Part shown: in pieces, positions 9,856 through 57,884 of the stretch
Position numbering within the stretch: the first letter of the stretch is position 1
Layout of the letters: every line of letters starts with the position of its first letter
From: Marsupella aquatica
Taxonomy: Eukaryota > Plantae > Marchantiophyta
NCBI GenBank assembly: GCA_973895155.1
Contig: OZ316891.1
Coordinates: 18,873,048 to 18,937,047, forward strand
DNA length: 64,000 nt
Reading direction: 5' to 3'
Notes under the pieces: generated by a model
Databases searched by the model: none
What the model saw: only the letters and a program-made list of their open reading frames with translations
Told to the model about the DNA's origin: nothing
Made by a program: the position numbers and the translations under genes

Positions 9856-11823
9856 TTGTTGTAAATGGTGGTCAATCTTTTTTGTATTCAACCCTATAGT
9901 AATTAAGTAGACAATTGAAACAATGAATGACAGTTTAATTAAGGATTTGTGCATGGATCAAGAGGTACTTGATGTCATTTAGTGATGCATTGTTATAAAG
10001 ATCTTGCAACAAAACATTTGAAGTTTTTGACTATCCCACCAAATGTTAAAGAGGTTGATCATTTATTAACTTATAATATTTAGATAAAATTGGAATTAAT
10101 CTAATATTTCAGTATTCCTTAAATTGGGGTTATTGGGATCATGTCTCCCTGTTAGGCCTTTTTTGCCCTTGGGCACTGTTATATATAATATGCATTTGAA
10201 TGCTATATTTTGTTTCCCCTTTCAAGTTTGTATACCACTTATTCCCTAGTAGTGTGTCGTACTTAGTCCCCTCCGGATATACTTGTCCCTCATTGGGCAC
10301 CCATGCACACAATCCAAGATTGACAAAAAACCTGCAATACATTTGACGGCTATATTTTGTTCTCCCCTTTCGAGTTTGTAAGCACACATGTGAAGAGTTT
10401 TGGCCAGATTGCACATTATAGTAGTTGATAATTAGTGTACAATGCAACTTTTGTTTGTCACTGGTTATTAACTGATTTCCGTGTGTGTCTAAAGTCACAA
10501 GAGTTGTTACGGTCCTGAACCATTGAACTATTGAACAATCCCATGGTTTTCCTTGTCTTTGGGTCAAATTCAGCCACCCCAACTACAGGGCAGGGTTCCG
10601 CCCTCCATGTGTGTTTCGTCCCCATCCTTGTCTCATTATTTCTTGAGTGCCCTTTCTTACCTTCACAGTAGGGGGGATGGATGTGGAACCCTCTTATTCT
10701 TCAATGTGACTACCCCAGGGTAGTAGGGTCTTTTGCTGTTAACCAAGGTTAAGTCACTTAACCCCCAAAACTGACATTTAGTCCAAATACTGGCAAGGGG
10801 TGATCTTTGAGGAAAAAAGGTGACAATCGAATAGAACCAACTTTGTAAATTTAGTACGTATTCTGGAGTATGGGTCACTTTTGGCTTGCTGAGGTCAGTA
10901 TCTGGCGTAGAATAAGGAACGCTTTGTAAAGGGGACAAACCGGGACGGAACCCAAAGCACAATTACTCGAATGTCAGGAGAACTTCCAAATGCGCAAGAC
11001 AGACATTGATGGAGGACCAATTGGTCTAAACTTGGTGCGTTGGCATTGGAATGATCGATATATCTGATGAGGTCGGTTATCTTGGATCCTGGGGGATGAC
11101 TTATTGTAAAGCCAAAGTGGACCTGTCACACTTGATATCAATCGATTGAATATAAGCAATATCAAATCTAAGCAAAGTCTTGGAAGTGATCTCTCAATTC
11201 TCATCGTCTCATTCTCGTAACGTCCCCTTACTTTCAGCATCTTACAATTTACTCCTTCGACAGAGGCTGGCTGAATAAGAGTGGCTATGGTGTCCGCGAT
11301 TTATGTGTGGGTTCATGTGCTGGAGAGATGGGAGAGTGATATAGAGCACAGAGCCCGTCCAAAACAAACTCCTTACATGGTGCTGCAACCATTATGTACA
11401 GCTGTAACAGATAGAAAATTTCACGCAGACAGAGGATCCAAGACACTAAAAGTCTATTATGGGGAAAGCCTATTAAATCATTAGAGCCGTCTATTACGGA
11501 GTCCTAGCATGAGTCCACTTCCGGATGGAGTACAGCTACTAGATGGAGCGGCTGAGGCTAGCTGATCAAAATTTAGGAAACCCCAAATCGCGTTATATAT
11601 CTTCAAATCTTCGTAGCCAGAACTGTCACCGACTCCTTAACTGTCCTTCACTAGTACGTAGCAACATCGAGGGACTCAGGAGGTGCAGTGCCTAAGAACT
11701 CCATTTTGGAACCTGAGCCAGACGAGCTCTGAACCAGCTCGTAGTAGCTAGTTGCAAGGAATGTCTCTCTTCATCTGCCAAGTCTCTTATTAAGCTGGCC
11801 TCCGTTCAAGGAATCCATTTACC

Positions 11824-36846: not shown

Positions 36847-38174
36847 TTCCTAGTCGCAAAACTCGACTACCTTAACACTTAGCTCCAACATCGCTGACTT
36901 TGACGCCGAGCTCCCTTATGGTCCAAGCCCGGATAGGCCATCCGGGGAGGACTGAGCATGGGGAGACTTGTGGGCAATGGGAAGTGGCGCTAGCGAAGGC
37001 AAGGCGCCAAGCTGGTGTCACGCACTAGGGACTTAGACTAGCTGAGAGCTAATCAGGTTGAGGGGAAAAAGGGTTGGGCTTGAGGTCGACCGTCCGGAGC
37101 TTCGGACGGACTTTGAGTTTTGAGGGCTTGAGTGAGAGCTCCTCTTCAAGGGCCCAGGGCCAATGGAGTTGATGCCATGGACAACGGACGCTTGGGGAAC
37201 AAGTTATGGCCCAATCCGGGTTTGGCCGGTCGGGGGCCCCTAGCGGCAATGTGATCTGAGGGCCTAAACATGAGCACCGGGTCGGTCCAATCACAACGGG
37301 CTATAGCACTCCGCTTGCGAAAGCCTAACTACGAAGTTATGGGCGTTGCCAGTTGGTGGCACGCCCAAACATGCAGGATAGGGTCCGGGTTGGGGACCAA
37401 AAGTTTGGGGACCAAAGCTGGTCTGAGGGTGGCAGGTCTTAGGGTTTAGGGTTAAGGGTCTCCAGAAGTATATATATATATGAGGGAAGTGGTGTCTCCG
37501 TGGGGGCTAAGGGCGAACCGAAGTTGTGAGCCACGACGGTCGCGACACTAAGGAAAAATGTCAAACGGAAACGACAATAACTTCCCAACGAGAAGTCCGT
37601 TGGGAGACTTCTTGGGTCCGTTGGAAATCTCTCAAGGAGGGCTACATCCTCCTGAGCTTAGCTGAGTCTGGGGGCACTGTAGGTTCTTGAGGTTTGCGGG
37701 TGCTATCTTGCCCGCATGCCAAATCCTGCCGAAACAACAGCCAAGTCGCGTTGAGTCTCTCAAGGGAACTTGCATTGGGGAGGCAAGGCCAAGTAGGTAT
37801 GGAGGTTGATTTCCAAGGACACTTGGCTCCTAGACCATCAATGGGGCGAGAACCAAGAGTTGGTTGCTAGAGTCGAGGTCATTCTGGTCCCGCCGTGTAG
37901 GGACAAGCTTGGGACAAGCTTTAGGACAAGCTACGCTATTTGGGCCATGAGCATGTCCTGGGGGTAGGGCGGTCAGTTGGTGATGGATAGGTACGAGGGG
38001 AAACTCAGGCTGCGCCCAAGGAAGGAGTTGTTCTGGACAAACACTGGGCGTGGGTTTTGGTTCCGGCTTATGGCATCAGGAGGACCTATCGTTGACCTAC
38101 TTGTCAATGTCTATTGAGCTTGAGTTAGGATGCTAGACTTGGGAGATCTAGATCCTGAAGGGTACTTACCGAGG

Positions 38175-41100
38175 TGTGATGGGTACCCCGTCACGGGAAG
38201 TCACACATAACAGGTCGCAGAGGCCTTTGCATTGTTAATAGCCACTGTAAATAAGCCATTTTTTTAATTTTCAAGTTAATTCCATCCTTTCAAGTTGGTG
38301 CTGCCAGGAGGACTTTACTTTATTTTATTCTCTTCTCAGAATTGTTCTAAATGGTCACGGCAACCTAGGGGGGGAAAATAGGTGGCCTTGCCATTTCGCT
38401 TGAACCATTGTCAAGTTCCCCCTATAAGTCCAAGAGGTTAACTTTTCTTTTTGGGGTTAAATGGGTATAACCACAACAAGGGCCAAAAGAAGAGAATGAG
38501 TTCTTTTGAGAGGTTTAAAGTTTTTTGGAGTAAAGGGGCATTGAGGAAAGGGAGTGAAGAAGTCCATAAGGGGCAGCCCCGGTGGGCGCCACCTGGCATC
38601 TCCATAAGGGCAGCCGGGGCGCATGGCGAGAAGGAAGTGGGGGGGATTAAACCCCCTTAGGAGCCCGCGAGTAGGACCAAAACAGGAAGTGGGGGGTTTC
38701 TTTTAAAAGCCCTCCTAAGGAGAGCACAGTCGGGAGGAAGAACATGCCGGGAGGAAGCAGCGGCAAGCCCATAGGGCTGCGTGCCCAGGGCATTTAGGGC
38801 TCCCATGAGTGAGGAGGGCATAGGGCCGCGTGCCCGAGGTGGTTATGGCCCGGCGAGTTGGGCGAGGCGGGGAGCCACCCGCGAGTGGCAGGGAGCATCA
38901 GGGCCTGGGGAGGGCCATGTAAGGGGAGCAGCCGGGACCCCCGCGAGTAAGCCGGGACCATGGCACACCAAAGGCAACGCGCCCTGCATAGGGCCGCGCG
39001 CCATTAAACACGCCCCGCGAGGCAACCGCGAAGAAGGCGCAAAAGGGCCGCGAGGAAGGAAAAGGAGGGGGCAGCCGCGAGGAGGGAATAAGGCACTGGG
39101 GCGCAAGGCAAAAGGAGGTGTCGGGGTGTTTTTTTTGTTTTTTGGTTTTTTTTTCCTTCTTTTCTCCCTCTTTTGCACGATCCTCTCCTTGCCGAAAGCA
39201 AAACTCGAGCTGTCTCCCGACACCTTGCCAAAAGCTCTCTCCACATTCTAATTATTTTTTAAGCTCTCTCTCTCATGGTAGATTGGTGCCAGGACTTGGT
39301 GGTGTGATTCTTCCGGGCATTAGCGGCAGCAGCACGGAGTGGCTTCTGAGGGAATTGAGGGTAATTGATTGATCGGGATACGGGGGCCGTTTCGGGCCAG
39401 GGAATTGACATTGCTACAGGTGACAGGATTTGGTGATTGAGGATTTGATTTCTGGATGCATGGATGCTGGATCAACCGGAGTTTAGTGCGGCAAGCGTTC
39501 AGAGATACAAGGTTGCTTACCGTGACTACGTTGAGACATTGATTGCAAGAGAGAGAGAAGAGAGAGAAGCTACGATGAGTACTGGACTGGCGGCAAGTTC
39601 CGCACCGGTGATTAGGAAGGTTTTCCGTCGAATTTATCCCAAAACCTCCACCAAGGTGATGGAGGATTGTAGGAATATTTTTCAAGCCACCGGGCTCACG
39701 GAGTTCATGAAGGTGGAGATTACAATCCCTTCGGGGAAGAGTTGGAACATTGAGGTCGGGGTGGAGTTACGTACGGAAGGAATCTACTTTGAATGTCTCC
39801 AGCGGGTAGTGCCCCATGTGGAGTTAGCTAAGCTCCTATTTCTGGAGAACCAGCAATTCTCATTCACACCCCGAAACATAAGGGGAGAGCTCACGTTGAC
39901 AATGGTGGCCGGTTGGGTGATTAATCCCACCTCCACTACTTCCATTCCTCTTTCTGCCGTCAAGGATGCTGAGCACAAGGGATTTCTGGCCAAGGTTCAT
40001 CAACGGGTCCTTGGTAACGTGCAATCCGGGATGGTGAATGGAGAGCATTTTGTGGTAGCTATGGACATCAAGAACTATCCAGCCCATGTGTACGAATGGT
40101 GGCACTACGGGTTGAAGAAGCTATTGGACGCCGATTCCGGGAGTGTGAAACCAGGTGGGGCTGTACATTTGATGGGGTCATTTTTGCTAGCCAGAGCAGA
40201 AGGATGGATTATTTCCCCGGGAGAGGAAGACACTGGATCATCCCTTACCATGAAAATCAGGAGTATTGCCACTACCATCTTGGGGAAACTAACGGAGGGA
40301 TCATCGTCGGCGGTTGGTGATGATAATAGAGAGGAAGAAAACCAGGATGAGGACTCCACAATGGAGTGGCTTGAATCACTTGTGGAAGATCCGGAGGAGC
40401 CCCTGGTCTACGACATTCCTGATGTCTACCTGGCAGAGTTACCAGAATTCCGGGAGGGAGTCCATGAGGGACTCAAGCTAGTCCACGCATTGAGAGATTC
40501 TCTCAAGCAGGCCACCGCCAGAGTAGAGACTTTGGAGCAGAGTGCCCTGTCTATGAAGGAGGTGATCAAGGCCAAGGAGGAGGTGATCAAGGCCAAGGAG
40601 GAGGCCATTCATGAGAAGGTTAAACTTCTCCAAGCAGCTCATGTAGAGATCTCCAACTTGAAGGGAGCCTTGTCCTCCAAGGCCAAGGAAGCGAAAGAGG
40701 TTGGAGTATTGAGACAGGCATTGGCCAAAGAGAAGCAAAATTCTGGAGAAGTGGTGGAGTTAAGAGCCCAGTGGGAGCACTACGGAGTCAAATGGTGATC
40801 TTTGAGACAAGGGCTAAGAGGAGTGAGGCCTTGAGTCTGGGGAAACGGAAGAACCCCTGCACACCTAGCTCCACACTTTCCCCGGATTTGGTCTCCAGGG
40901 CCATTGAGATGGTGGTGAAGGAAGTCAGTGGGAAGTATGGACCCCTGTTGGATGCAGCCAAGAAGAGTCAAGAGAAGAGCAAGAGCTTAGAGAAGAAGCT
41001 CAGGGACGTACGTAAATCGTTACGAGAAGCTCAGGTCAACACGGGGACCCCAGGGATGCCACCCCGATCTGTCACCCCTGGGACTCCCATGGCCACCGGG

Positions 41101-42515
41101 CAGGTTTTATCGTTGGAGTTGCGGTCCGGTGAAGAGGCGGCCTTATGGAAGGACACCATTGGTGAGGGGTACATTAAGGCGTGGCAAGCCTTGGCCAATT
41201 TGAGGAAGCAGGGGAGCACTAGCACAAGTAGTACCCCGGTGAAAAAGAAGAGGAGTGAAGTGGCACTCACTCCAGTGGAGAGTGATGAGGAGGCCCACTC
41301 ACGGGGCTCAAGCCAGGGCACCGTGAGTGAAGAGAAGGAGGATTAGAGTGGTCGTACGGACGTGGTTGTACGGCCCCTTGACTTTCCAACTTTTTTGTGT
41401 GAAGAGGAGGAGGATTAGAGTGGTCGTACGGACGTAGTTGTACGGCCCCTTGACTTTCCAGCTTTTTTTTGAGCGGTCACTCATGGGCTTGTTGGAAAGA
41501 GCTCGTGGAACTGATTCCAACAAGAGGCGGCGATCCTCAAACGGAGCCAAGATGAGCAGGTTATGGCCCGGTGAAGTTGTGTTTACGGGATACTGAAACA
41601 GCCATAACTTGGTCGTCCAATGTCCGTTTCAAGAGCGGTTGAGTGCTTCATGATCAGGAGGAGGAGGGCTATCCAGGGGTGAACTCAGAAGTGCAAGTGG
41701 AAGGGCGCCTAGTTTCGGCCATTGTGGGGTTCCTTGCAATTTCACGGTTCACGGAGTAACGTTGGGGCGCCGTCGAAGGCACCATCGGCCCCATTTTTAG
41801 TTTATGGTTTAGAAGCATGTGTGTGTCTCATGGTTTTAGTTTAGGGGTTTCTTAGTGAAGGGTTTAGCGGCGCCGCTAGGGTAAGCCGCCATCGTTGTGG
41901 CCCCGTGAGGGGTGCTTTGGTGTGTTTTCTTGGTATTTAGGGGGAAAGCCCCGGAGTAGTTGGGGGGGAACTTAGTCTAGTGTTGGTGTTAGGGAAGTTA
42001 GCTCATAGCCTGAAGGGGAATTCAAGCCAGAGTAGTGAGGTAGAGGTGTAGCGCTTGCCCTAGTGAGGCAAGAGTTGGGCAGACGGCAGGAGGCTGGGTT
42101 GTCCTTGCAATGTGTTACCACTTTTTGCCAAAAGATATGGATTTGGTTTGATTCCTCAAGTTTTGGTGTGGCGTTATCTTTTTCGGCTCACAATTGTGTT
42201 CTTTCCCAAGAAGTGTCTAAGGAATACTTGCACGGATTGGTCGACTATGTGAGTAGGGGGGGTGGTGACAGCACTCCACCAGCGACCAGTAGGAGTGTGT
42301 GTGTGGCGTAGTCCATGGGACTTGATCAAAAGTAGAGGGGCTAGTCGGTAGACTTGATCAAAAATTACACTTCCAGGAGCGGAATCAAACATACTCATCC
42401 TACATGCAATAGAATCCTAATAGCGTCCCTCCACGTTTCTGTCATACGATAACAAACGATTTTAGTAGGAGGAAACACTTATTTGTTGTGTAAATCGTTT
42501 GATAAGCAGGTGACA
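38175..42515. mobile_element. 4.3-kb TG...CA insertion with 5-bp TSD (probable solo LTR) containing an ORF
   Basis: Starts tgtgat and ends gtgaca; TSD cgagg at 38170-38174 and 42516-42520; the host LTR sequence resumes exactly afterwards. Confidence 0.85.
39464..41346 (+). pseudogene. Retroelement accessory ORF (444 aa + 191 aa, frameshift ~40790) with acidic linker and long coiled coil
   Basis: Two overlapping long ORFs; heptad-rich region (KEVIKAKEEVIKAKEE); no gag or pol motifs. Confidence 0.6.
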
Positions 42516-42884: not shown

Positions 42885-43682
42885 ATGGCTAAAAACACTC
42901 GATCAAAGAGTGGCAAGCGGGCTCCCCCCGCCAAGGGGAGAGCCAAGTTCAAGAATAACAGAAGGAGGATGGGTCAACTTCCCTAGATGAACGTTACAAC
43001 CAGGACGATGAGGACGTGGCGGCCGAATCGTCGACCACCGCAGCAAACATGTCAACTACAAAGCGTCGTTGACTTAAAGGGAAGGAGGTGGCCAACCCTC
43101 CAGAGGACAGGTTAGGCAATGACGGCTCTAACTCAGATGGAAGCAACGACGGTTCAGAGGCTGAATTGGAGGAAGAGGGTCAGGACCCAAATGAAGAACT
43201 TAACCCAGCCTTAAGAGGGTTGGATGCAAAACCAAAGGATGATGTCAAGCCGGATGTCATCGTGGATAATTTGACCAAGTAGAACCAGGGCAATGCGGGT
43301 GATGCCTCAGCCCCGAGAGGTCAAGGTGCCCACAAGACGTGGGGGTATCACCAAAATCCATAAGTCAGAGAACCTAAGGACAGGCGCCCCACAAAGGAAA
43401 GGCGGTTGGAGGACCGTCCCCATACAACCCGCAAGGGCCCAGCCACTGATGATGGTTTGGGTCCGTTGACTCAAGACCAACGACTCATTTATGAGCAGTT
43501 GGAACACAACAAGGGGGCGAAGATTAAGTACTTACTTAGTTTGGGTAGTCAGAGTGTGACACGTCCCAAGGGGGGAATGGTAGTTGGACAGAATATGTTC
43601 CAAGTGAACCAGCTACCGACTCCTCCAACTTACGATTGGGGCTTATGAGCAAAGTGGACAAAAGTTCCTGAGTTGGCTCACC
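42885..43682 (+). pseudogene. Gag 5' remnant of element A, interrupted by the CACTA
   Basis: Degenerate ORF after the PBS; the reading ...QKFLSWLT joins TMEIH... at 54122. Confidence 0.6.
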
Positions 43683-44491
43683 CACTGGTACATATTTTGG
43701 CTTTTTCCGATGCTCTTCTTTCGGTCGGCAACACTTTCCGATACAGAGAAGATCGGTACTCTCCGGTTGTCCCCGCATCGGGGATTTACCATACATTCTA
43801 CATCGGACACATACTGTCCCATCCTATTAGAATCGAAAATAGTTTCCCATTTAAAAACTATCGGAGCATTTCCCATTCTACCTGCATCGGACAATGAGAC
43901 TGCCGCGACGCAAGAGGCGTCCGATAAATAAAATATCGCATGTTGGTTCCGATGAACTGAGGGACGAAAAATTTCCGATATTTTTGGAATCGGAAATGGG
44001 TTCCGACTTGTGTCCGAACCCATTACAAACGGACATCGTTTCCGATGTGGTAAAGATGGAAAAGTTTCCCGATACCTGTAGTATGGCATATTAGTTCCGT
44101 TTCTTTTAATATTAGAAATATCGGTTTTCAGTAGAGCCGGGGTTTTTTGAGGGTTTTATCATCTTCCTAGCTTCTGATTAAGGCATGTTGTGTTTCTGAT
44201 AGGTTTTTGACTCCATTTCCATTTGAAGTATGTGGGAACTCAACTAGGGTCAACTTGAAATGAATTGGAAGCTTTCATTTCATATGTATTAAAAGCACAA
44301 ATATATAGCCACAGCTAGAGCCTAGAGATTTAAGTGGTATATATAAGTAAAGTAACATGCAACAAAAAAATGGTAATGACAATGTAGATAACATATATAT
44401 GCCGAAAAAATCAATACATGGAGGGAAGTGGTCATTAATTAGGTCTAGCTAGTGCTAGCTACCTAGCTTTTACCATGAAATTCCTAAGTAG

Positions 44492-47400
44492 CTAGTTGTT
44501 CTCATTTTCCAAATCTTCCACAACAACTACATTTGGTTGTTCTTGGACTATGGATCTGGATCGTGGAATGTAAGGCATTACAATGGACCACTCAGGATCA
44601 TCTGGATAAGGGAGATAGAATGCCTGCTCAAGATTATGAGGAAATGCAAAAGGATCTGAGGCCCTCCAATTTGAGCTGATGACAGCCCCTGTCTTCAGTC
44701 GTGTGAAGCCGCAAGCATCCTCTTCACATGTTCGATTGTGGCCAACAAGATTCATCCGAAACCATTTGCACTTCAGCACCACCTCTTCCAATGTTGTATG
44801 CGCATGGTATTTTACAACAAGGATCTCCTCTATCTTTCCATAGTGAGCTATAGTAGAACGGATGGGATTTGTGTCAGATCTGCTACTTACAAAATCCTGG
44901 GTGAACCAACCCATCACCCCACAATCTTGTGTAGCTGCCCTCTTGTCATCAAGTCATTCCACACGAAAGTGTCTCCCCTTGGACCACATGGCAGTCCTGG
45001 TTGTAACTGTAAGTAGAGGTCCATGAACCAAGGTGCGCAACTTATCAGTCACCATTGGGAAGTGTGATACACTCTCCCCAGTAGCCACCAAGGCATCCAC
45101 TTCTAACAACTTCCCCTTCATGTACATGTGAAATTTGGGAAATAAGCGTGGTCGTCGATTATTGTGCTTATCCTCCTCATAAAATGTGGTCCACTCCCCA
45201 ACAATCTCTGGAGAGTTATACAACATGAATGCAGTGAGTTTAGTGTGCTCACTAGGGTCAAGAAGCCGTTCTCCCTTTGCACCTGTCAAACGGTCATCCT
45301 CATAGTCTGCTTCTCTTGATGCCTCATCTATCCACCCCCTTGGAGCATTTGAATCAAGTGTAGCAATAATGTTTGTACAATAAAACATGCTCTCTGCTCC
45401 AAGATGATGCTATGCAATGCTACCTTCCACCCTTGCGCGATTTGAAACATAGGACTTCATCACTCCCATGTACCGCTCTACCCAGTACATCCAACGACAA
45501 TGTACAGGGCCTGCAATACCAACCTCACGCACTAGATGTAGTAGAAAATGAACCTGACCATCAAAAAATGAAGGAGGAAGGGCCCTTTCAAGTTTGCACA
45601 CAACCTCCACTCCAAACACCTCCATTGCTGCAACCTCATCCTCGTTCACCTCCTTTTGACACACCCATCTCAACAACTTACCCAACGACCAAAGGGCATC
45701 ACGAAGATCCTCACTACCCAATCCAATAATAGCAATTGGAATAACATGTTGCAATAAGCGATGATAATCATGGGTCTTCAAGAAAGCTGGCCATTTTGGA
45801 GAGTCAAGTCCACCAAATGCCTTGCGAAGATTGGCACTATACCCTGTAGGAAATCGCATAGACCCTATGCGTTTGCGAAACTCGGTCCGCTCACCTCGTG
45901 TCAAAACCCAAGGAGGATGAATAGTAAGGGGGGCATTATCGGGATCCATAGATGGCCAAAAACCATGAGGGCCATGCATCCCCATCTCTTCACAACTCTC
46001 TCTCCAGTTGTTGTCTTTCTCTCCATATAGGTGGCGAATCAAGGACCTCCCAACATTTCCCTCAATGTGCATAGGGTCAAATAAATGGTTAAGTGGCATC
46101 TCAGCCCAATAAGGCAGTTGTGACAATGCAGACAAACAAGTCATGCCACACCGGGCATATTGCAATGGGTCATCTGGATTAGATACTCTCTCCCATACCT
46201 CTTTCCAATATGCACGATCTTTTGGAATAGGTTGTGGTCGTCTATCTGGTTGGCCATCCTCAGTGTCATATAAAAAGGGGTCTCTCCTCCAATCATGGTC
46301 TGGAGGGAGGTACTTGGTGTGACCAATATACACTATCTTCCTCAAGGTCTTTGACTTTGGCCGCGCTATTCCTTCCAAATCAGGTCCATAAGTTGGGCAA
46401 GCTCGATATCCTGATGTGGTCAGGCCAGAAATATATCCAAACCCTGCATATAAATATATATCCCATGCATAAGTAAATAAGTTTATTAAAAGATATATGT
46501 GCTTCTAGCTAACTCAATACATAACAAAGTATGCTAGGTACGGTTGCCTAGCTATGGGAAGGGATAATTTAACAAAGATTCATACCTGGAAGATCATGTA
46601 TGGTCCACATAAGAATGGCCTTCAACTTAAATTCTCGACGTAAGCCCCCCGTTTGCACTCGACCATCATAGCAATCCACACCACTCCAAAGCTTTTGTAG
46701 CTCCTCAATCAATGGTTGCAAGTACACATCAATTTTTTCACTTGCTTAGGACCAGGGATAATCATGGAAAGGAGAAAATGACCCTTCTTCATGGACATCC
46801 ATGGAGGGATGTTGTAATTAGTAAGGACCACTGGCCATAGTGAATATGGTTGGGCCTTACCTGCTAGTGCAAATGGGCTGATGCCATCCGCTGCCAATCC
46901 TAGGCGAACATGACGTGGGTCAGTTTGGAACTCACCCCATCTCTCCTCCACAAACTTGTTTGCAGGGGAGTCAACCATCATGCGCATGGTGGGTGGTTGT
47001 GAACTCATATCTGAGCGATTTTGGGAATGCCAAACCATATACTCAGCCAACTCAGCACATCTATATTGGTGGCGCAAACGAGGTATAAGAGGAAAGTACC
47101 TCATGACCTTCTGAGGAACTTTTCCCGTCAACATGTCCTCACAATACCTCGGCTTCTCACATGTAGGACATGACGTTGCATCTTTATAAGTGCCTCTAAA
47201 CAGAACGCAATCATTCACGCAAGCATGTATGACTTCGTACTGCAGACCTATGGACTTCAACACCTTCTTTGCCTCTTTCCAAGAGTCTGGCAAGTTGTTT
47301 CCTTCTGGCAAGATACAATCATGCAATGTCCGAAAGAGATCATCAAGAAGTAGGTTGCTTGCTCCATGTCTTTGCTACAAGTTCAACAAAAACATTATTG

Positions 47401-47758
47401 CTGAAAGACGAGACAAGCGTGATCCATCAAATATTCGAGTTTGCGCATGTTGACGTGCTTCCTCCCACTGTTTGGAGGCTGAACTCCTTGAACCTTCTTG
47501 ATGTGGAAGTGGGACCTCAATGTTCTCCCCATCAGCCATGTCATGATCACCATCCTCTATGTCATAGAATTGGTGCATCAAGTCATCCATGGCCCTATCT
47601 TCATCAACTCTTGATTGGGAGGCATCTGGTTCCTGCTCTGGAACATCCGGATCGCCATCTGGTGGTAGAGAGGCATGTCGCCAATCTTCCATGGCCTGCA
47701 CAAGGTGTTGGCGCATAGCTCGTGGTAACACCCCAACATCCGGCTCAACATATGCATT
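44492..47758 (-). pseudogene. CACTA TnpD-type transposase (Transposase_21 / DUF4218 / DUF4216 type), disrupted
   Basis: Motifs IHACVNDC, YFPLIPRL, LGLAADG, WPVVLTNYNIPPW, FDPMHIEGN, KTHDYH, PPSFFD, WMYWVER and HYGKIEEI. Intron 46586-46444; in-frame stops at 47375, 45410 and 44954; frameshift ~46735. Confidence 0.93.
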
Positions 47759-47867
47759 CTATCATACAACGCACAAAACAGATATATACGTTTGAGTTAG
47801 CCCATGGGTTCCTAAAAAAACTACAATATTCTTATATTACTTCAAAAATGGGGAATACACATATGTG

Positions 47868-49171
47868 CTAAGTGTGGCCAGATCGAAAGCCCATCGTGGG
47901 TGCGTTCCATTCATAGTCACAAAACAACTCATCACCCGCCCTAATGGTCCGTATGGCTACTGTCATAACATGATCATCCATATGTGTGACATAGTAAGGC
48001 GGAGTGGGTGGGCCAAAAATCTGAGCCCACTCTACATTAGGCTGGAGTCCACTCCCTCTACCATGTGTACTATTGATGTACCCAGCTATGTTATCTGAAT
48101 GGACAAGGTCCCCATCAATCATCCTACAATGCCAAGGCCTCCTTAGGACCTCATCTGGGTCTGAGTCCATCTGCAATGCATATACCCCCCAAGCTGGATG
48201 TTGGCGCAAGAGGATGTTCCAACTCTCGGATGTATACACAGGCCCAATGTAAGGGAAAAGGTGTTCCCCATCATAGCCATGACGCCAAGGCTTTGGAGGG
48301 ACCTCAATGTCCTCCAAAGCAAATAAGCCTAACCCAACCTCCCCGCCAAGGGTCGATGCCTTCACTATCCATTGTCGACCCCATATATGTACAGGGATGT
48401 CAATGGCTAGGCCACGAGGAATCACAAAACTCTCAGGGTCAAAATCCTTGAAGACACTGATTGCCTTTCCCGTCACATATGACAAGCCCAACCTCCCTTC
48501 AACTTCTATGTACTCCTCCCCTGGTGGAGGCATAACACTCCTTCTAAAGTGCTCATGGGATGGGTCTGTGTCTAGAACTACATGCTGTTGTCGACGTCTA
48601 TGAGAACGTGGTCTTGTGCGTAGAACCCTAGTAGGGGGCGGTGCATCATCCCTACCATGCCCCAACTCTACCACTATGGGTTCATGAACAACATCTGCCT
48701 GAACATGTGCGGGGGTACATGATTTCTCGGGGTCTTCAACTGATGATGCAAGCAACTGTCTAGCACCAGCTAGGAATGCATCATGCCATAGTTGACTAGA
48801 GACCAATGGAGGACGGGCCCTACAACGCACCTATTCAATCATAAACAAACAAAAATTAATACCTGTCTCCTAAAAGGTCTCAAACCAGCCAACTATTATG
48901 ATAGTGTATCATATATAGCGGAGTTCATGTCAAGAAATACCTGGCGAGCTGAATATCCCGGTAAATCACCCTCATGTCGACCATAGTTTTCGATGTGTTC
49001 AATGGACTGCCATGCTTGACGAACCACCAGTCCTTTACATCTAAGACACCAGCATGGAATAGGGCCTAATGGAGGGGGTGCTCGAGGCTGTTGAGGGGGA
49101 GGAGGAATGTCCCCCTCAGAGGAAGACAAGTCAGAGTCGGAATCTGTATCCAAACTCTCAGAAGTCGACAT
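47868..49171 (-). CDS. CACTA-borne SET-domain (lysine methyltransferase-like) protein fused to a transposase-associated zinc-finger exon
   Basis: Exon 49171-48941 (CWCLRC..HIENYG) spliced in phase 0 to exon 48830-47868. SET motifs GLGLFALEDI, YIGPVY, AGYINS..PNVEW and AIRTIRAGDELFCDY; open frame. Confidence 0.8.
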
Positions 49172-50236
49172 TGTCTGCCAATTACACACAAACAAGTCTT
49201 TACCAAAATGCAAGATTGATTCATCACCCTAACTTGAGGTAAACCCAAACAGGAAATATATAGTATGTTAATAATTTGTAGTGTTGGACTTAATTAGTAC
49301 CTGAATGATATCCGCGCTCTACAGTGCCTACTAGGCTCTAAGCCTTAGACTATATGCTAAGGCCAATCCAAAAAAACCTGCACATACAGGCTAGGTGGGG
49401 AAGTTGAAAGATGAGATGACATACATGCAAACCTAAGTAACAAACCAATAATTAATGAAATTAATAAAAATCAATGACGAGTTGGATGTCCAATTATAAA
49501 CTCCCACAAGTAACGCATATATCATGTCAAATATTTCCAATACATTTTGGAGGAGCATATATGTCATACCTTTTGGATGCGCGTACTCTCGCTGTGCATA
49601 ATGCATTGGCAAAAATAAACCCTACTAAGAAAACCAAGGAAAAGCAACGACCCGACCCTCCAAAAACAAAAAATACAAAACTGCACAAAACGGCACTAGA
49701 GTGTTAATTTAATTTGTGACTTCTTATAGTCCCCAAAAGTTGCACCATGCATATAGCATTGCCTCATGGTCAAAATGGGAATCATTTAAAATCAAACTGA
49801 AAATAGATCTGGGTACATACATTCAATGATCATCCATACCCACCAAAAAATAGTGTGCTAGCTTTGTCACGGCAACTGTACGTTGATATGCCCGTTTTGC
49901 GCCGCACACCTAATAAGCCCACAATATAGCATAATTAACCCCCAACTAACATAAAGGGGGTCATTATAGTATACATGGGATCCAAATGCCAAAGTCCAAA
50001 TGCCAAGGTCATGCGATTCACAAACCATCAGAAAATACATTGGGAGGGTTAAGTCCAATACTTTGGAGGAGGGGTCCGATACTAAGTCCGATTGACCTAG
50101 AATCGGAGTTTCCGATGCATAAAGTATCGGACGTTATGCATTTTGGGTTTTTAGGTCACCCGACTAAAGTGCGAGGGCACTCTAGTCGGGAAAAGCATCG
50201 GGAGCATTTCACGATACCTTTGCGGAGCTCGTAGCG

Positions 50237-53200
50237 ATGGAAGGGAATGCGGGAGGGATGGGAGATGGTGCCGGGCCATCAAGCAGCTATGGTGAAGTCA
50301 TGGCTCAATTGTTTAGGGAGAAGGTGGGGCTCTCGCCGGAGATTGCATTGCAGGTAGCTCAGCTCACTCAAGGACTGATCGACAGCTCCCAGAAGGTAGC
50401 CATCACTGATGCAGAAAAAGCTTTCCAAGCCAGACTCGAGGAGGAGAGATTGCAGAGGAAGAGGAAACGTAACACTAGGGAGGACGAGAGAGAGAGGCCA
50501 GTGGAAGCCCTATCACCAAGACAAAAGGAGAAGAGCCTAAGGAGGGAGGCTCGGGCTGCAAAACGACAGAGAATTCAGGAGGAACGAAAGAAGGCAGAGG
50601 ATAGGGCCAAGAGGCCAAAATTGTTTCTGAATGAGGGAGGTGCTCCACTCTCCAGGAGTTATCGTTTGTTTGGGAGTCAAGTTAGGCAGATTGTGAGGTC
50701 TCATTTTGGCCCAATGGACTACTGGGGGAAGAAGAAGCAGGATGAGAGATTTCGAATTCGAGAGCAAATCAAAGAGAAATTTTTGAATGGGTCGTTTGTG
50801 GACGATCGATTCTTAAACAAAAAGATCTCAGTCTCACTTGCAGACATGCGAAAGTACCTGGCTGAATGCAAACTGGATGAGGAAGTGATCAGGAAAGGGG
50901 GAAGCCCAGCTGGTGAGATTCCTGAGAATGCTTGGTGTGCCTGGCTTGAAGAAGAGTTGCAGGTTCGAGCTTGGCAAGCCACACAACGCTGGGAAGCTGA
51001 AATTCAAGCAGCTCAGAAGAAGATTGAACAAGGAGAGATGGTGAATACTGCACCCATGCATCAAGAACTTGAAGAATGGTCAGCAAAATCAGCCCTGCTT
51101 GGAGACCCACCATCCTGGCTAATGAAAGCTCCGCTGAGAGTAACAAAGAGGCCAAAGGTTACTCACAGAATGGGGCAAGGCGGATCACAGCGTCTCAAGG
51201 CCGATTTTGTAAGTGCTCCATTCCCCTCCTCTCCATGCATTCCTTCAGCAGCATTCCTCCTCCCTAATCACCTGAGGCCAATTGACAAATGCCTAACCCT
51301 TCCAAACTCGGGACAGGTCTTTGTATGCCCGTAGGTCGCTCGATCATGCCTTAGTTTTTTTTTGCTTTTGGCATGTAAGGTCCGATTCTAGTCCGATCCT
51401 TTAAGTATCGGATGCAGCATTGGACAATAAAAAAGAATCGGAACTGTCGAGGGTACCGATTCTATTAGTATCGGACATATTCAAATTTTTGAATAGTTTG
51501 TGCATGAACGCCTAAGTGTTCTTATGGGTCTTTGACGGTGAAGGGTTTATATAGGTGTTTAATTAGGCCAGGGTAGGATTGCTATAATTGACCTTAGTAT
51601 TGGGGGTGGCATATGGTTTGGGTGTGTAGGAGAAAGAGCATGGATGACCATTGTTGCCGGCAGAGAGAGAGCTGGCAAAGGAGCATGGTGCTCGGGCGCT
51701 GAAGATTCACATGGACGACATGTTGGCCTCGGTAAGTGCGGATATTAGAATGATTTGAAAGATGGCTTCATGCTGGTACGTATGTTGCGGAATGACATAT
51801 GGATTGGAGATTGTTACTATGTGCAGGATGAGTCAGGGGGTGAGGAGGACTTGGAGAGTGAGGAGGATGGTGAGGGGGAGGAGGATGAGGAGGATGCGGA
51901 GGATGATAGTGCTTCAGAGGGGAGTGTGGCCGAGGCTCCAGTACGAGGTTCTACTGGTGCACGTGGCCGGTCAGGACCCCGAGAGAGTGGACGTCACCAG
52001 TCTGGTCGGGGTGTAGGTGGCTCCACTCGCCGGATGGAGCGTAGAGCAGGTGATATGCCTCCTTCTCGTCAGAGATTAGCCGGTAGGAGTGGACGGAGTG
52101 AGTCCCGGGTTCCAGCCACAGTAGGTCACAACCGAGGGGTTTGTAGTGAGTCTGGAGTTCTAGCCACAGCAGGTGGTCGAGTGAGGACTGGCCCTGGTGT
52201 TGTACCAGGTGGGTCTCGACAACGGGCTGGTGTTCATACTGGTCGTGTCGTTGGCCATTCAGGAGGTTCAGGCCGTAGTGGTGGAGGTGAGTCTCGCCCT
52301 GAGGGGGGTAGTGGTGGAGTTGTTGCACCTCGTCAGTTTAGGGCTGGCCCTGGTAGTGTACCAGTTGGTTCACGACAGTCCGGGGGAGGCCTTGGTGGTC
52401 ATGTGCCCACACCATCTCCTGTTCATAGTGGTGGTGTAGGCATCCAGTCTGGAGGTTCCGGCCATAGTGGTGGAGTTGAGTCTTGTCCTGAGGGGGGTAG
52501 TGGTGGAGTTGCTGCACCTCGTCAGTTTAGGGCTGGCCCTGGTAGTGTACCAGCTGGTTCACGACAGTCCGGGGGAGGCCTTGGTGGTCATGTGCCCACA
52601 CCATCTCCTGTTCATAGTGGTGGTGTAGGCATCCAGTCTGGAGGTTCCGGCCATAGTGGTGGAGTTGAGTCTTGTCCTGAGGGGGGTAGTGGTGGAGTTG
52701 CTACACCTCGTCAGTTTAGGGCTGGCCCTGGTAGTGTACCAGCTGGTTCGCGACAGTCCGGGGGAGGCCTTGGTGGTCATGTGCCGACACCATCTCCTGT
52801 TCATAGTGGTGGTGTAGGCATCCAGTCTGGAGGTTCCGGCCATAGTGGTGGAGGTGAGTCTCGCCCTGAGGGGGGTAGTGGTGGAGTTGCTGCACCTCAT
52901 CAGTTTAGGGCTAGCCCTGGTAGTGTACCAGCTGGTTTGCAACAGTCCGGGTGGGGCCTTGGTGGTCATGTGCCCACACCATATCCTATTCATAGTGGTG
53001 GTGTAGGCACCCAGTCGGGAGGTTCCCGTCATAGTGGTGGAGGTGAGACTCGGCCTGAGGGGGGTAGTGGTGGTGGTGCTGGAGGGGCTTCTTTCCACAC
53101 TTGTGTCGGGGAAGGAGTGCCTTCCCATGGTTCAGGCGCATCTGGAGGTGGGAGAGTACCAGAGATTGCTTCTGCACCTCATCCACATGACGATGGAGGC

Positions 53201-53323
53201 AGATCAGGTAGCCACGACCATGATGTGCTACCTGGTGTGTCAGCGGTAGAGACTCATAGAGCAGAGCAGCCTAGTCGTTCCCGTGTGAAGAAGAGGAAGA
53301 CACGACATAGCTTGTATGGATAG
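50237..53323 (+). pseudogene. CACTA ORF2 / TnpA-like protein (Transposase_24-like HRMGQGG motif) with acidic tract and Gly/Ser repeats
   Basis: Exons ~50237-51208, 51630-51731 (contains one TGA) and 51826-53323; basic NLS-like stretches; oriented divergently from the transposase. Confidence 0.6.
52289..53070 (+). repeat. 189-bp (63-aa) coding tandem repeat x4
   Basis: Unit starts gagtc..cctgag at 52289, 52478, 52667, 52856 and 53045. Confidence 0.92.
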
Positions 53324-54121
53324 TGGACTAGGTAGACATGTATAGATCTAGTACCAGGCTAGCGAGGTGGATAGTTGGAGGGCATTATGTCCATTTGATA
53401 TGCCCAGCCTTTAGCATAGCTGGCACTATGCATGGAGATGTTCTCCATTTTTTGTACTTTTGCCCTCGATATTTCATTTTTGTATATAAGATATAGTTAC
53501 GCCGTGTCATGCCCGGGTTTCAAGGTACATAGTGTGCAATCAAAATTGATAGTCTCTCTTGACTAAATGACCTCTCTAAACCCTAGATAAAACATCAGTT
53601 AAAGAATTAAATTGCACCCCAATTAAACCCCCAATTAGCCCCCCATTTAAAATAGGCCCAATCAAGCTCGCCAAATAGTTTCCGGGTAGATACCGATCCA
53701 TATCCGATGCCACAATCATCGTACTTTTCCATCCCAAACGTATCGCAAAGTTCGATTCTACTATAATCGCAATTTCCGTTCCAAATAACATCGGACATTT
53801 CCGATGTTAAACCCATCGGTCATTTCCATGTCCAGAATATCGGTCTAGCATGGGACGCCTCCACTAACAGAAAATGCGTGAAACAGACATCCGATTATGC
53901 GGGCATCGGACATAGTGTTTCCCGATAGTTTAGGCGACGGAACTCCCAAATGTTTTGGTATCGGTAGTTCCGATTAGTTTCCGATTGTCATTTTCCGATA
54001 AAATTTATATCGGAAATTGCGATTCTTTTGGTATCGGACAGGTGAGATTTCCGCGTCGGATTTCCTGAAGGCGTCCGATCTAAATACAATCGGTAAAATG
54101 CCTCAAAATGTACTAGTGACC

Positions 54122-54704: not shown

Positions 54705-55819
54705 CCTCGTACCTATCCATCTCCAATTGACCGCCCCTGCCTCCAGGACATGCTCATGGCCCAAATAGCATAGCTCGTCCTAAAGCTTGTCCCAAGCTTG
54801 TCCCTACACGTCGGGACCAGAATGGCCCCGACTTTAACACCAACTCCCGCTTCTCGCCCCACTAATGGCCTAGGGGCCAACTTCCCTTGGAACTCAACCG
54901 CCATGCCTACTCGGCCTTGCCTCCCCAACGCAAGATCCCTTGAGAGACTGAACGCGGCTTGGCTGCTATTTTGGCAAGATTTGGCAAGTGGGCAAGCTAG
55001 CACCCGCAAACCTTGAGAACCTATGGCATCCCTAGACCAAGATGAGCTCAAGAGGATGTAGCCCTCCTCTAGAGCTTTCCAACAAACCCAAGAAGTTCCC
55101 CAACAGACTTCTCGTTGGGAAGTTATTGCCGTTTCCATTTGGCATTTTCCCTTAGTGTTGCGACTGCCGCGGCTCATGACTTTGGCTCGGCCCTAGCCCC
55201 TAGGGAGACACCACTCCCCCCATATATATATTTCTGGAGACCTGCCACCCCCGGACCAACTTTGGTCCCCAAACTTTTGGTCTCCAACCCGGACCCTATT
55301 TCGCTTGTCTGGGCACGCCACCAACTAGCAACGCCCATAACTTCCTAGTTAGGCGTCTGCAAACGGAGTGCTTTAGCCCATTGTGATCGAGCTGACCCAG
55401 TGCTCATGCCTAGGCCCTCAGATCTCATCACTGCTTTGGGACTCTGATTGGCCAAACCCGGATCGGGCCATAACTCGTGCCCCAAACGTCCGTTGCCCAT
55501 GGCGTCAACTCCATTGGCCTTGGGCCCAAGAGGAGCTCTCACTCAAGCCCTCAAAACTCAAAGTCCGTCTGGGGGTCTAGACGGTTGACCTCAAGCCCGG
55601 CCCTTTTTCCCCTCAACCCGACCAGCTCTCAGCTGATCTAAGTCCCTAGTGCGTGACACTAGCTTGGCGCCTTGCCTTCACTAGCGCCACTTCCTAATGC
55701 CCACAAGTGCCATGCTAAGTCCTCCTCGGATGGCCTATCCGGGCTTGGACCATAAGGGAGCTCAGCATTGGAGTCAGCGACGCCGGAGCTAAGTGTTAAG
55801 GTAGTCAAGTTCTGTGACT
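54705..55819 (-). mobile_element. 5' part of interrupted LTR-B
   Basis: Reverse complement of 36852-38000; starts (on the minus strand) agtcacagaacttgactacc. Confidence 0.88.
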
Positions 55820-55849
55820 ATGTTGGTGGAGCTTGGGGGCCTCAATCCA

Positions 55850-56079: not shown

Positions 56080-57884
56080 TATTCGCGCGTGATGGGTCGA
56101 AAGAAAAGAAGTGAGGACTCCGGGTGGTGGAGTTCTGCTTATGGTATTCTTCAAGTGTCAACCGGAGGCAAGGTTGTCGTGAAAGGTAAGTGGCACATAC
56201 AGGATTGTTGGAGGGCAACTTGGTTTGTGACGAAGCAAATATAACCACATCTCAAGATGAGATGGCTCAATTGTGGCATTCCAGAATGGGACACATGAGT
56301 GAAAAAGGGTTGGCAATACTTCGTCAGAAAGAACTTCAATCTTTCTAATTTGGAATCTTCTAAGTTAGATTTTTGTGAACATTGTGTGCTTGGGAAGCAG
56401 CACAGGAGAACCTTTGGTGTTAGAACGCACAATACCAAAGCAATACTTGATTATGTACAGAGTGATGTGTGGGGTCCAGCCCCAACTCCCTCACATTCTA
56501 GAAAACTATACTATGTCACCTTCATTGATGATTACTCAAGGTTTGTGTGGATCACATTTCTACACGATAAGTCTGAAGTCTTCCACGCTTTTAAGGAGTG
56601 GAAAGCCCAAGTTGACTATCACACTATATACAAGGTGATAAATCTGTGATCAGATAACGGCAAGGAGTATAGTTCAAGTGAATTTGAATTGTACTGTGCA
56701 GAGCAGGGGATTACTCGCCATCTCATGACAATTTATACTCCTCAACAGAATGGTGTTTTTGAGCGGCTCAACCAAATACTATTGGAGAGATCAAGAAGTA
56801 TGTTGAGCCAATCGGGTTTATCGCATGAAGGTGGTGGCGCCGTCAATTTCCTTATTTGCTGTCAGATACGTTGAGTATATTTGCAGAGTGACTCACGAGC
56901 ACTCATTCGACTTTTATTGAGACGGCGCACAATCCTTGTGTCTGCTCCCGGCTCTCAAAATTCCTTCTCAAATGCGACCTTGAGGAGCGGCCAATTCTGC
57001 TGAGTGGGTACATCCAACACCATGTACCACTTCAACGCCTCGCCTTTAATCAATCCTTGGAACATCCGCTTTTTGGTGTCATCATCTGCTTCTTCGTTCT
57101 GGGCTTTGTAAAGAAGGGCCAAAGCTGGTCACTGAGATGGGATTGGAGCATGGAAAAATGGCTCTTCGTTGTGACAACCAGAGTGCGTTTCACCTAGCTA
57201 TTAACCAGGTTATGGATAGCAGGGTGAAGCACATTGACACCAGGTACCATTTTATTAGGTAAACAATGTATGATAAAATATTTAAGCTAGTCAAGATTGA
57301 TGGAAAGCTCAACCCGACTGATGCTTTTACCAAAGTGATTCCTTTGGAGAGTTACTCAAGACACCGTGCTACTTTGCAAGTTTTGCATTTGCAGCACTAG
57401 GAGAGTAACTTTACAATATATAATTTTTGTATATGGGTTACTCAATCCTATTATGGCTATGGCTTAATTCTAGTTAACCCTTAGTTAACCTTAGTAAATG
57501 GTTTTTAGGGGGACACCTATGATTTTAGGTGATTGTCTAGAATTTCCCGTTGAGTATCTCATATGGATAACAAAAATTGCAGTCCCCAAGACTAGAGTCA
57601 AGGGGGAGTTTGTTAAGGATTGCTCTTAGTCTTGTGACTCAAAGGTTATAGCAATTAGGTTAACCTCAGTTAGGGACTTAGCTGAGGTTAGGTTAGTCGT
57701 GTGTGACCTTGCATATATGCCAGGGCTAGTGTACGTAAGCCGCTGGTATATAGTGCTTGCTCATTGTAACAAAGCAACTTGAGGAAGAGAGAGAGCATGT
57801 GTGTTTGACTACTCTGAAGTAAAGTTGTTATGTTCGTGTGGACGTAGCCTTGGAGAAGAGGTGAACCACATATGAATTGTGTCA
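56080..57884 (+). mobile_element. Ty1/Copia remnant (GAG-pre-integrase, integrase, RNase H, PPT, 3' LTR)
   Basis: WHSRMGH, CEHCVLGKQ, SDVWGP, FIDDYSR, DNGKEY, PQQNGVFER; RNase H CDNQSA..KHIDTRYHFIR; PPT aagggggag at ~57600; LTR starts tgttaagg at 57611. RT is missing. Confidence 0.9.
56826..57120 (-). pseudogene. Antisense Gypsy-type gag fragment in place of the Copia RT region
   Basis: Minus strand reads DDDTKKRMFQGLIKGEALKWY...QNWPLLKVAFEKEF. Confidence 0.65.

Follow-up and report, generated by a model that had tools for sequence, protein, structure and literature searches.

A SET exon within the first transposase intron of a bryophyte CACTA element, with one donor likely choosing between two acceptors

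Here, we describe a bryophyte CACTA element of about 10.4 kb whose first transposase intron contains a SET-domain exon, in an arrangement in which one splice donor likely chooses between two acceptors, the nearer opening the SET frame and the farther the transposase frame. The element lies in the window, that is, the whole 64,000-nt stretch of DNA analyzed. An earlier note on this DNA had placed the donor of the first coding exon (exon 1) at 48941 and the two acceptors at 48830 and 47758, all in phase 0, with the SET exon nested in the first transposase intron; these coordinates and phases were borne out by the minus-strand sequence, and the minus-strand order and phases support the nesting. 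Its proposal of alternative splicing fared unevenly: the join from 48941 to 48830 is found in gene models and in a metagenomic locus (L001), whereas the direct join from 48941 to 47758 was made by none of the 24 exon-1 matches. The note had also argued for an integrated system rather than random capture, and the arrangement indeed proved common to a family instead of being a one-off capture.

The element and its genes

The element occupies 43683–54118 (10,436 bp), with a decayed transposase on the minus strand, and comprises the following features (splice points are marked by a slash).

43680–43682, no strand: left target-site duplication, ACC
43683–44150, plus strand: left terminal inverted repeat CACTGGTACATATTTTGG and subterminal TCCGA/TCGGA repeats
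44492–46443, minus strand: last transposase exon, with the C-terminal part of PF02992, DUF4218 and DUF4216; premature stops at 45410–45412 and 44954–44956
46444–46585, minus strand: inferred second transposase intron, phase 1, bounded by CAG/GTATGA and TATGCAG/GG
46586–47758, minus strand: transposase exon 2, from NAYVEPD... to the N-terminal part of PF02992; stop at 47375–47377, frameshift near 46732
47759–47867, minus strand: spacer from SET to transposase, 109 nt, GC 0.32, with the SET 3′ end and a possible poly(A) region (A-rich AATATAAGAAT)
47868–48830, minus strand: SET exon, 320 codons, with its own stop (TAG, 47870–47868) and GxG, GYINS and ELxxDY motifs
48831–48940, minus strand: intron from exon 1 to the near acceptor, 110 nt (111 nt in L001, same phase)
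48941–49171, minus strand: shared coding exon 1, with an acidic and proline-rich start and a CxCxxC-x13-H-x4-G module
50237–53323, plus strand: second gene, head-to-head with the transposase, three inferred exons, one premature stop
53680–54118, minus strand: right end, with subterminal repeats and the terminal inverted repeat CACTAGTACATTTTGAGG
54119–54121, no strand: right target-site duplication, ACC

The 3-bp target-site duplication characteristic of CACTA (En/Spm) elements flanks both ends as ACC, and contigs from four of four runs contained the empty site, in which 43679 is joined to 54120/54121. The inverted repeats begin with CACTG at 43683 (CACTGGTACA) and CACTA at 54118 (CACTAGTACA), and TCCGA/TCGGA repeats number 12 in each end region (about 450–471 nt) compared with 87 across the window. 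Although the copy is decayed, it encodes a transposase of the Tnp2 type expected of En/Spm elements (PF02992, DUF4218, DUF4216). Reads covered 30 of 30 bins of the element, SET included, in all four runs, which came from three organisms; the run contigs used for copy comparison behave as DNA.

The window copy of the transposase carries three premature stops and one frameshift. Base 44956 reads G in 1351 of 1353 depth units in run X1 and in nearly all in the other three runs, so that almost every other copy is free of the stop at 44954–44956, and contigs of three of the four runs contain an extra base behind 46732, with which the frameshift is absent. One contig of X3 and one of X5 have the thirteenth codon of the transposase exon replaced by a stop.

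The second gene, with exons at about 50237–51208, 51630–51731 and 51827–53323, is a TnpA candidate by motif: its KVTHRMGQGG resembles KFTHTAGSRS. A profile test was not significant, its score being reached by 15 of 60 shuffles. No Pfam match, including PF03004, was found for this gene, the atlas was blank for it, and its structural model had a pLDDT of 43. TnpA-like proteins appear restricted to flowering plants in the available portion of bioRxiv 10.64898/2026.08.24.746577; if the second gene is truly TnpA-like, this bryophyte case would extend their range beyond flowering plants. Its last exon contains a 189-bp tandem array (52231–53097, four copies 85–100% alike) that yields Gly/Ser-rich repeats. 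TCCGA/TCGGA words also form internal clusters of five each at 50050–50210, near the start of the second gene, and at 51380–51480, in its first intron, and these are possible self-regulation sites. Contigs of run X1 bridge 49171–49560, 50083–50717 and 50753–51086, and may represent deletion derivatives or divergent subfamilies that share coding parts only.

Several other features were observed around the element. The repeat into which it is inserted has a high read depth and contains long unnamed ORFs (39449–41346), and an inverted pair of about 1.1 kb (36851–37969 and 54735–55820, 84–91% complementary) lies outside the CACTA ends. Two more CACTAGTAC ends are located at 11649 (plus strand) and 22526 (minus strand), with flanking triplets that do not match each other, and no second transposase was found elsewhere in the 64,000-nt window. 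At 56150–56830 on the plus strand is what we take, from its motifs, to be a broken Copia-like integrase remnant.

Exon 1 and its two acceptors

Exon 1 begins with the ATG at 49171 and extends over 231 nt (77 codons) to CAG/GTATTT (48941/48940), closing in phase 0 with a donor that ranks second within 49171–46586 (score 5.66, simple matrix; 46860 scored higher). We conclude that it is a diverged form of the PF13963-type module that opens flowering-plant CACTA transposases, here separated from the transposase by an intron. The earlier note had described exon 1 as a transposase-associated Cys/His module; relatives, spacing and profiles agree with this description, but the Pfam search that it had suggested returned no PF13963 match on the window exon at the curated score. 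PF13963 weakly matches 5 of 19 family rows (best E 0.025, under the curated cut-off) and is the sole family matched by more than one row. The exact CxCxxC-x13-H-x4-G motif was present in only 2 of 848 six-frame ORFs from the window and L001, both of them the exon-1 frames, and the 13/4 spacing of this N-terminal core is shared with 16 of 19 PF13963-bearing transposases. A profile built from PF13963 transposase pieces ranked exon 1 of the window and of L001 first and second among the 848 ORFs (E 0.018 and 0.027), and profile–profile comparison (hhalign) of the exon-1 family with these pieces gave 86.6% (P 4.5e-6; score reached by none of 60 column shuffles), although the profile figure is somewhat flattered because the reference pieces were cut out by the same Cys/His motif. 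The exon-1 search yielded 24 matches, 22 of them real; the other two, P0104 and P0108, were chance matches and were dropped from the counts. An alignment of 19 exon-1 rows shows no substitution at C40, C42, C45, G47 or G64, and H59 is almost as constant.

A non-coding leader exon is suggested by putative splice sites, donor and acceptor, that precede the exon-1 ATG at 49424, 49377 and 49300 on the minus strand, and similar AT-rich stretches bounded by GT and AG lie upstream of exon 1 in L001.

The near acceptor, AATAG/GTG, has its first exon base at 48830 and opens, in phase 0, the stop-free SET frame. The join from exon 1 to SET is well supported by gene models and by L001, whose SET is 48% identical, and the near acceptor is very probably in use. 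All six multi-exon gene models that include exon 1 (P0001, P0103, P0107, P0114, P0115 and P0119, which are automatic predictions) continue into SET-exon sequence: the junction in Calypogeia model P0001 falls at the identical position (...GYSAQQ/VPHRP), and Riccia model P0119 consists of exon 1 and SET followed by a stop, without the transposase. According to the available text of PMC11735767, the Riccia annotation combined transcript and ab initio evidence. In L001, the donor, an intron of 111 nt, the SET acceptor in phase 0 and the stop that closes SET are all kept, and the locus ends with an AG/AAT; a valine (GTn codon) lies at the donor or at most one aligned column away in 17 of 17 unspliced exon-1 relatives. 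Further candidate sites by the near intron are acceptors at 48869 and 48819 and a donor at 48862.

The far acceptor, GATAG/AAT, has its first base at 47758 and opens NAYVEPD... in phase 0, in frame with the downstream PF02992, DUF4218 and DUF4216. Judged from sequence, it is probably used: an acceptor must be paired with a donor, and upstream just one good donor has the right phase, namely the one that closes exon 1, from which we infer the join of exon 1 to the transposase. Simple matrix scoring identified no second good donor between 48830 and 47841. The spacer also holds a CTAAC branch-like word, a TGA TAG in frame just before the far acceptor, and the acceptor AG itself (47760–47759). A stronger-looking acceptor at 47811 was rejected, as the transposase frame read from it runs into the TGA TAG and its AG differs from copy to copy.

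Conservation of both acceptors across family copies, to which the earlier note had pointed as informative, was observed in L001 and in divergent subfamilies. The stretch at 47747–47770 around the far acceptor contains no variant of 5% or more, compared with 18 variable places in the 97 nt upstream (a rough P of 0.007, biased because divergent contigs were placed only where they fit). Divergent subfamilies cease to align at 47765–47770, where five distinct T-rich tails begin, and read depth falls several-fold across the spacer in X1–X3. In one divergent-subfamily contig, 185 letters separate the SET end from the transposase start, compared with 122, and a second contig is similar with a different tail. 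L001 ends with ttcatAG/AAT, 219 nt past its SET stop. The joined product would place the module 215 residues from HAC, compared with 163–172 in 17 other transposases (about 45 longer). In Calypogeia model P0107, the start of the SET exon is followed directly by sequence from within the transposase exon, and none of the 26 long transposase matches begins with exon 1 (P0040 was checked directly; the others are of flowering-plant or other types).

Single-isoform predictors prefer the nearest exon and often mask transposases. This bears on the strongest alternative, in which exon 1 now serves SET only, and the transposase, no longer equipped with its N-terminal module, has a start of its own, at Met 47716 or from a small exon in the SET region. 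The entry of all six multi-exon models into the SET exon, and of none into the far acceptor, favors this reading, yet the habits of such predictors count against it. L001 likewise offers a possible start codon, an ATG three bases after the far AG, within the 6 nt (AAT ATG) that it retains beyond that acceptor. However, the far acceptor is conserved together with 14 indel-free codons between it and Met 47716, the first Met; three out-of-frame ATGs (47757, 47751 and 47739) precede this Met; and the scoring found no second good donor between 48830 and 47841. We consider an independent transposase start improbable.

A still less probable alternative is that SET is an internal exon of one fused zinc-module–SET–transposase protein, in the order seen in SETMAR, at least in some lineages. 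The intron-sized, AT-rich spacer would suit such a fusion, and in Riccia model P0040, which comes from the same annotation of mixed transcript and ab initio evidence (PMC11735767, available text), PF02992 follows immediately on SET (44% over 119 residues, E 9e-21). P0040, however, is missing the Cys module, the half of SET that contains GxG and a portion of the transposase, as expected of a model over a decayed copy; it looks patched, and the other Riccia model, P0119, ends after SET. Moreover, no phase-0 GT lies past the catalytic Tyr in either the window or L001: between this codon and the SET stop, the window has no GT and L001 has one weak phase-2 site. The SET stop is kept in three differently tailed subfamilies, with minus-strand loose ends in X1, X3 and X5 that read MAIRCHPS, MAIRCRPS and WDWG, each followed by a stop; subfamilies with different tails end at most eight codons past the last Trp of SET. 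A single SETMAR-type frame running through SET into the transposase was found in neither the window nor L001, with the one Riccia automatic model to the contrary. No longer SET relative was found among 1812 candidates, a result of little weight since the search missed P0040. The GGT of the AGDEL motif was considered as a shared donor and rejected, being in phase 1 and removing the catalytic Tyr.

The SET product and a proposed mechanism

SET lysine methyltransferases are recognized by GxG, NH(S) and ELxxDY motifs. The SET frame has both the family signature and the fold: it matches PF00856 with an E of 5.4e-7 (30.4 bits, cut-off 22.4), and its predicted structure (mean pLDDT 58.7) matches the MLL1 SET in Foldseek with an E of 8.5e-6 and SET8 with a Z of 9.6 (rmsd 3.4, 127 aligned), the SET8, EZH2, PRDM and Set1 rows being tied within 1 Z. 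Row 24 of this comparison, 3bo5, is the SETMAR SET structure. A sequence search of solved structures gave six matches, none under an E of 0.2.

Fifteen SET relatives were found, down to 33% identity, including Calypogeia fissa (58% over SET) and Riccia sorocarpa, and both liverwort classes are represented among the relatives. Every row that covers a given motif keeps it (16 rows for GxG, 14 for GYINS and 13 for the catalytic Tyr); the His of the NHS motif is replaced by Ser throughout (GYINS), with Asn and Tyr conserved, and the protein is without a cysteine post-SET. Comparison of the window with L001 gave a pN of 0.36 and a pS of 0.75 for SET (204 codons) and a pN of 0.42 and a pS of 0.90 for exon 1 (38 codons), with synonymous sites saturated in both. 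The intact SET part has no lesions in 1.2 kb compared with four in 3.1 kb, which is within chance.

Other SET sequences were also inspected. A more distant SET of the same type (34%) is present at 319–750 of locus L002, in a different upstream exon context, and this locus had no exon-1 or transposase match. L003 (25% to SET) was rejected as a family member, being a generic SET. None of 50 pattern matches in viral contigs was related, and in prokaryote genomes 1 of 49 was, a generic SET at 24%. In the atlas, giant-virus and haptophyte SET clusters are nearest by features, as a lead only.

From these motifs, the SET protein is predicted, with good probability, to be an active lysine methyltransferase, and we slightly favor the prediction that it acts on chromatin. 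Under the least likely alternative, SET travels along as a passenger, having been captured or having lost catalysis, and does no more than draw splicing away from the transposase; the altered NHS motif and a lesion count within chance would allow this, but the motifs persist in relatives as distant as 33% identity, pN lies well below pS, and SET is present in both liverwort classes.

With one donor choosing between two acceptors, the mechanism would most likely operate as follows. A single promoter near 49.2–50.2 kb would drive a pre-mRNA whose first coding exon takes either acceptor. Splicing to the near acceptor would produce a zinc-module–SET protein ending at the SET stop, its message probably being cleaved in the 109-nt spacer or keeping a long 3′ tail, and splicing to the far acceptor would skip SET and produce a zinc-module–transposase protein. 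The near acceptor would be the default, and the same switch would hold transposase output down. The SET product would carry the same module as the transposase and may therefore reach the same place. Our tentative proposal, which takes up the steering idea of the earlier note and is less likely than not, is that the shared module docks SET where the transposase docks, on the element ends or on the product of the second gene; computational docking of the exon-1 module to the N-core of the transposase, run without alignments, gave an uninformative score of 0.02. Once docked, SET would most likely deposit a mark that sustains expression of the element, self-repression being the alternative; we favor the anti-silencing role because Arabidopsis Spm3 TnpA acts in this way in the available portion of bioRxiv 10.64898/2026.08.24.746577. 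The full extension of this scheme is doubtful: that a bryophyte CACTA built, by exon swapping, a self-targeting chromatin writer that marks its own chromatin, perhaps along with neighboring genes, and throttles its transposase, in both liverwort classes.

Relation to known systems

As described in the available portions of PMC13547354 and bioRxiv 10.64898/2026.08.24.746577, maize En/Spm and Arabidopsis EN/SPM3 and EN/SPM7 produce TnpA and TnpD by alternative splicing of one gene, and Spm units show turnover between spliced and split designs. As far as these accounts go, the present element resembles En/Spm in its CACTA ends, 3-bp duplication and Tnp2-type transposase, in the two products predicted from one unit, and in having an accessory product that is proposed to regulate the element epigenetically. 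In En/Spm, however, the alternative product is TnpA, a DNA-binding protein with a tandem HTH that is separated from the transposase, whereas here a foreign enzyme domain lies behind the Cys/His exon of the transposase and the candidate for TnpA is encoded by a gene of its own, placed head-to-head. The parallel with Spm drawn by the earlier note therefore holds for the two predicted products but is otherwise loose, the Spm accessory being a DNA-binding protein. For flowering-plant CACTA transposase introns, the accessible text of PMC4158355 reports no elements inside.

SET cargo has been described in Phytophthora HarbingerS and MuDR, in Helitrons and in the red-algal Plavaka PAG2 (PMC12730594; bioRxiv 10.1101/2025.02.11.637652; available portions). 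Like these, the present element is a DNA transposon that keeps a SET-domain gene, and Plavaka is itself CACTA-related. In these oomycete and red-algal cases, as far as those texts extend, SET is a separate accessory gene (that of PAG2 being joined to an adenine methylase); here, in contrast, it is an exon inside the transposase gene of a land plant and shares the first coding exon. The same sources name VANC of VANDAL elements. VANC is likewise an element-encoded factor proposed to alter the chromatin of its own element; it is not a SET enzyme and has a demonstrated effect, whereas the effect of SET here is predicted.

SET-carrying transposons and Spm alternative splicing are each known. Our literature search, whose scope lay outside Repbase Reports, subscription papers and supplements, where such families may be described, revealed neither a SET-bearing bryophyte CACTA nor any land-plant CACTA with a coding exon shared in this way. 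Many transposons in these lineages carry H3K27me3, according to the available portion of bioRxiv 10.1101/2022.10.24.513474. If the proposed scheme is true, a land-plant element would write histone marks itself, in a form open to direct testing, and the shared exon would offer a way to learn what the orphan PF13963 module does, a significance tempered by the earlier SET cargo in other transposons and by an enzymatic activity that is predicted only.

To our knowledge, the plant anti-silencing factors TnpA and VANC are DNA-binding proteins with no recognized writer activity. SETMAR (Metnase) unites SET and a transposase in one gene, which is domesticated and immobile and in which SET is fused in frame to a transposase of the mariner type; unlike SETMAR, the family described here is multi-copy and mobile, and its SET frame is closed by a stop.
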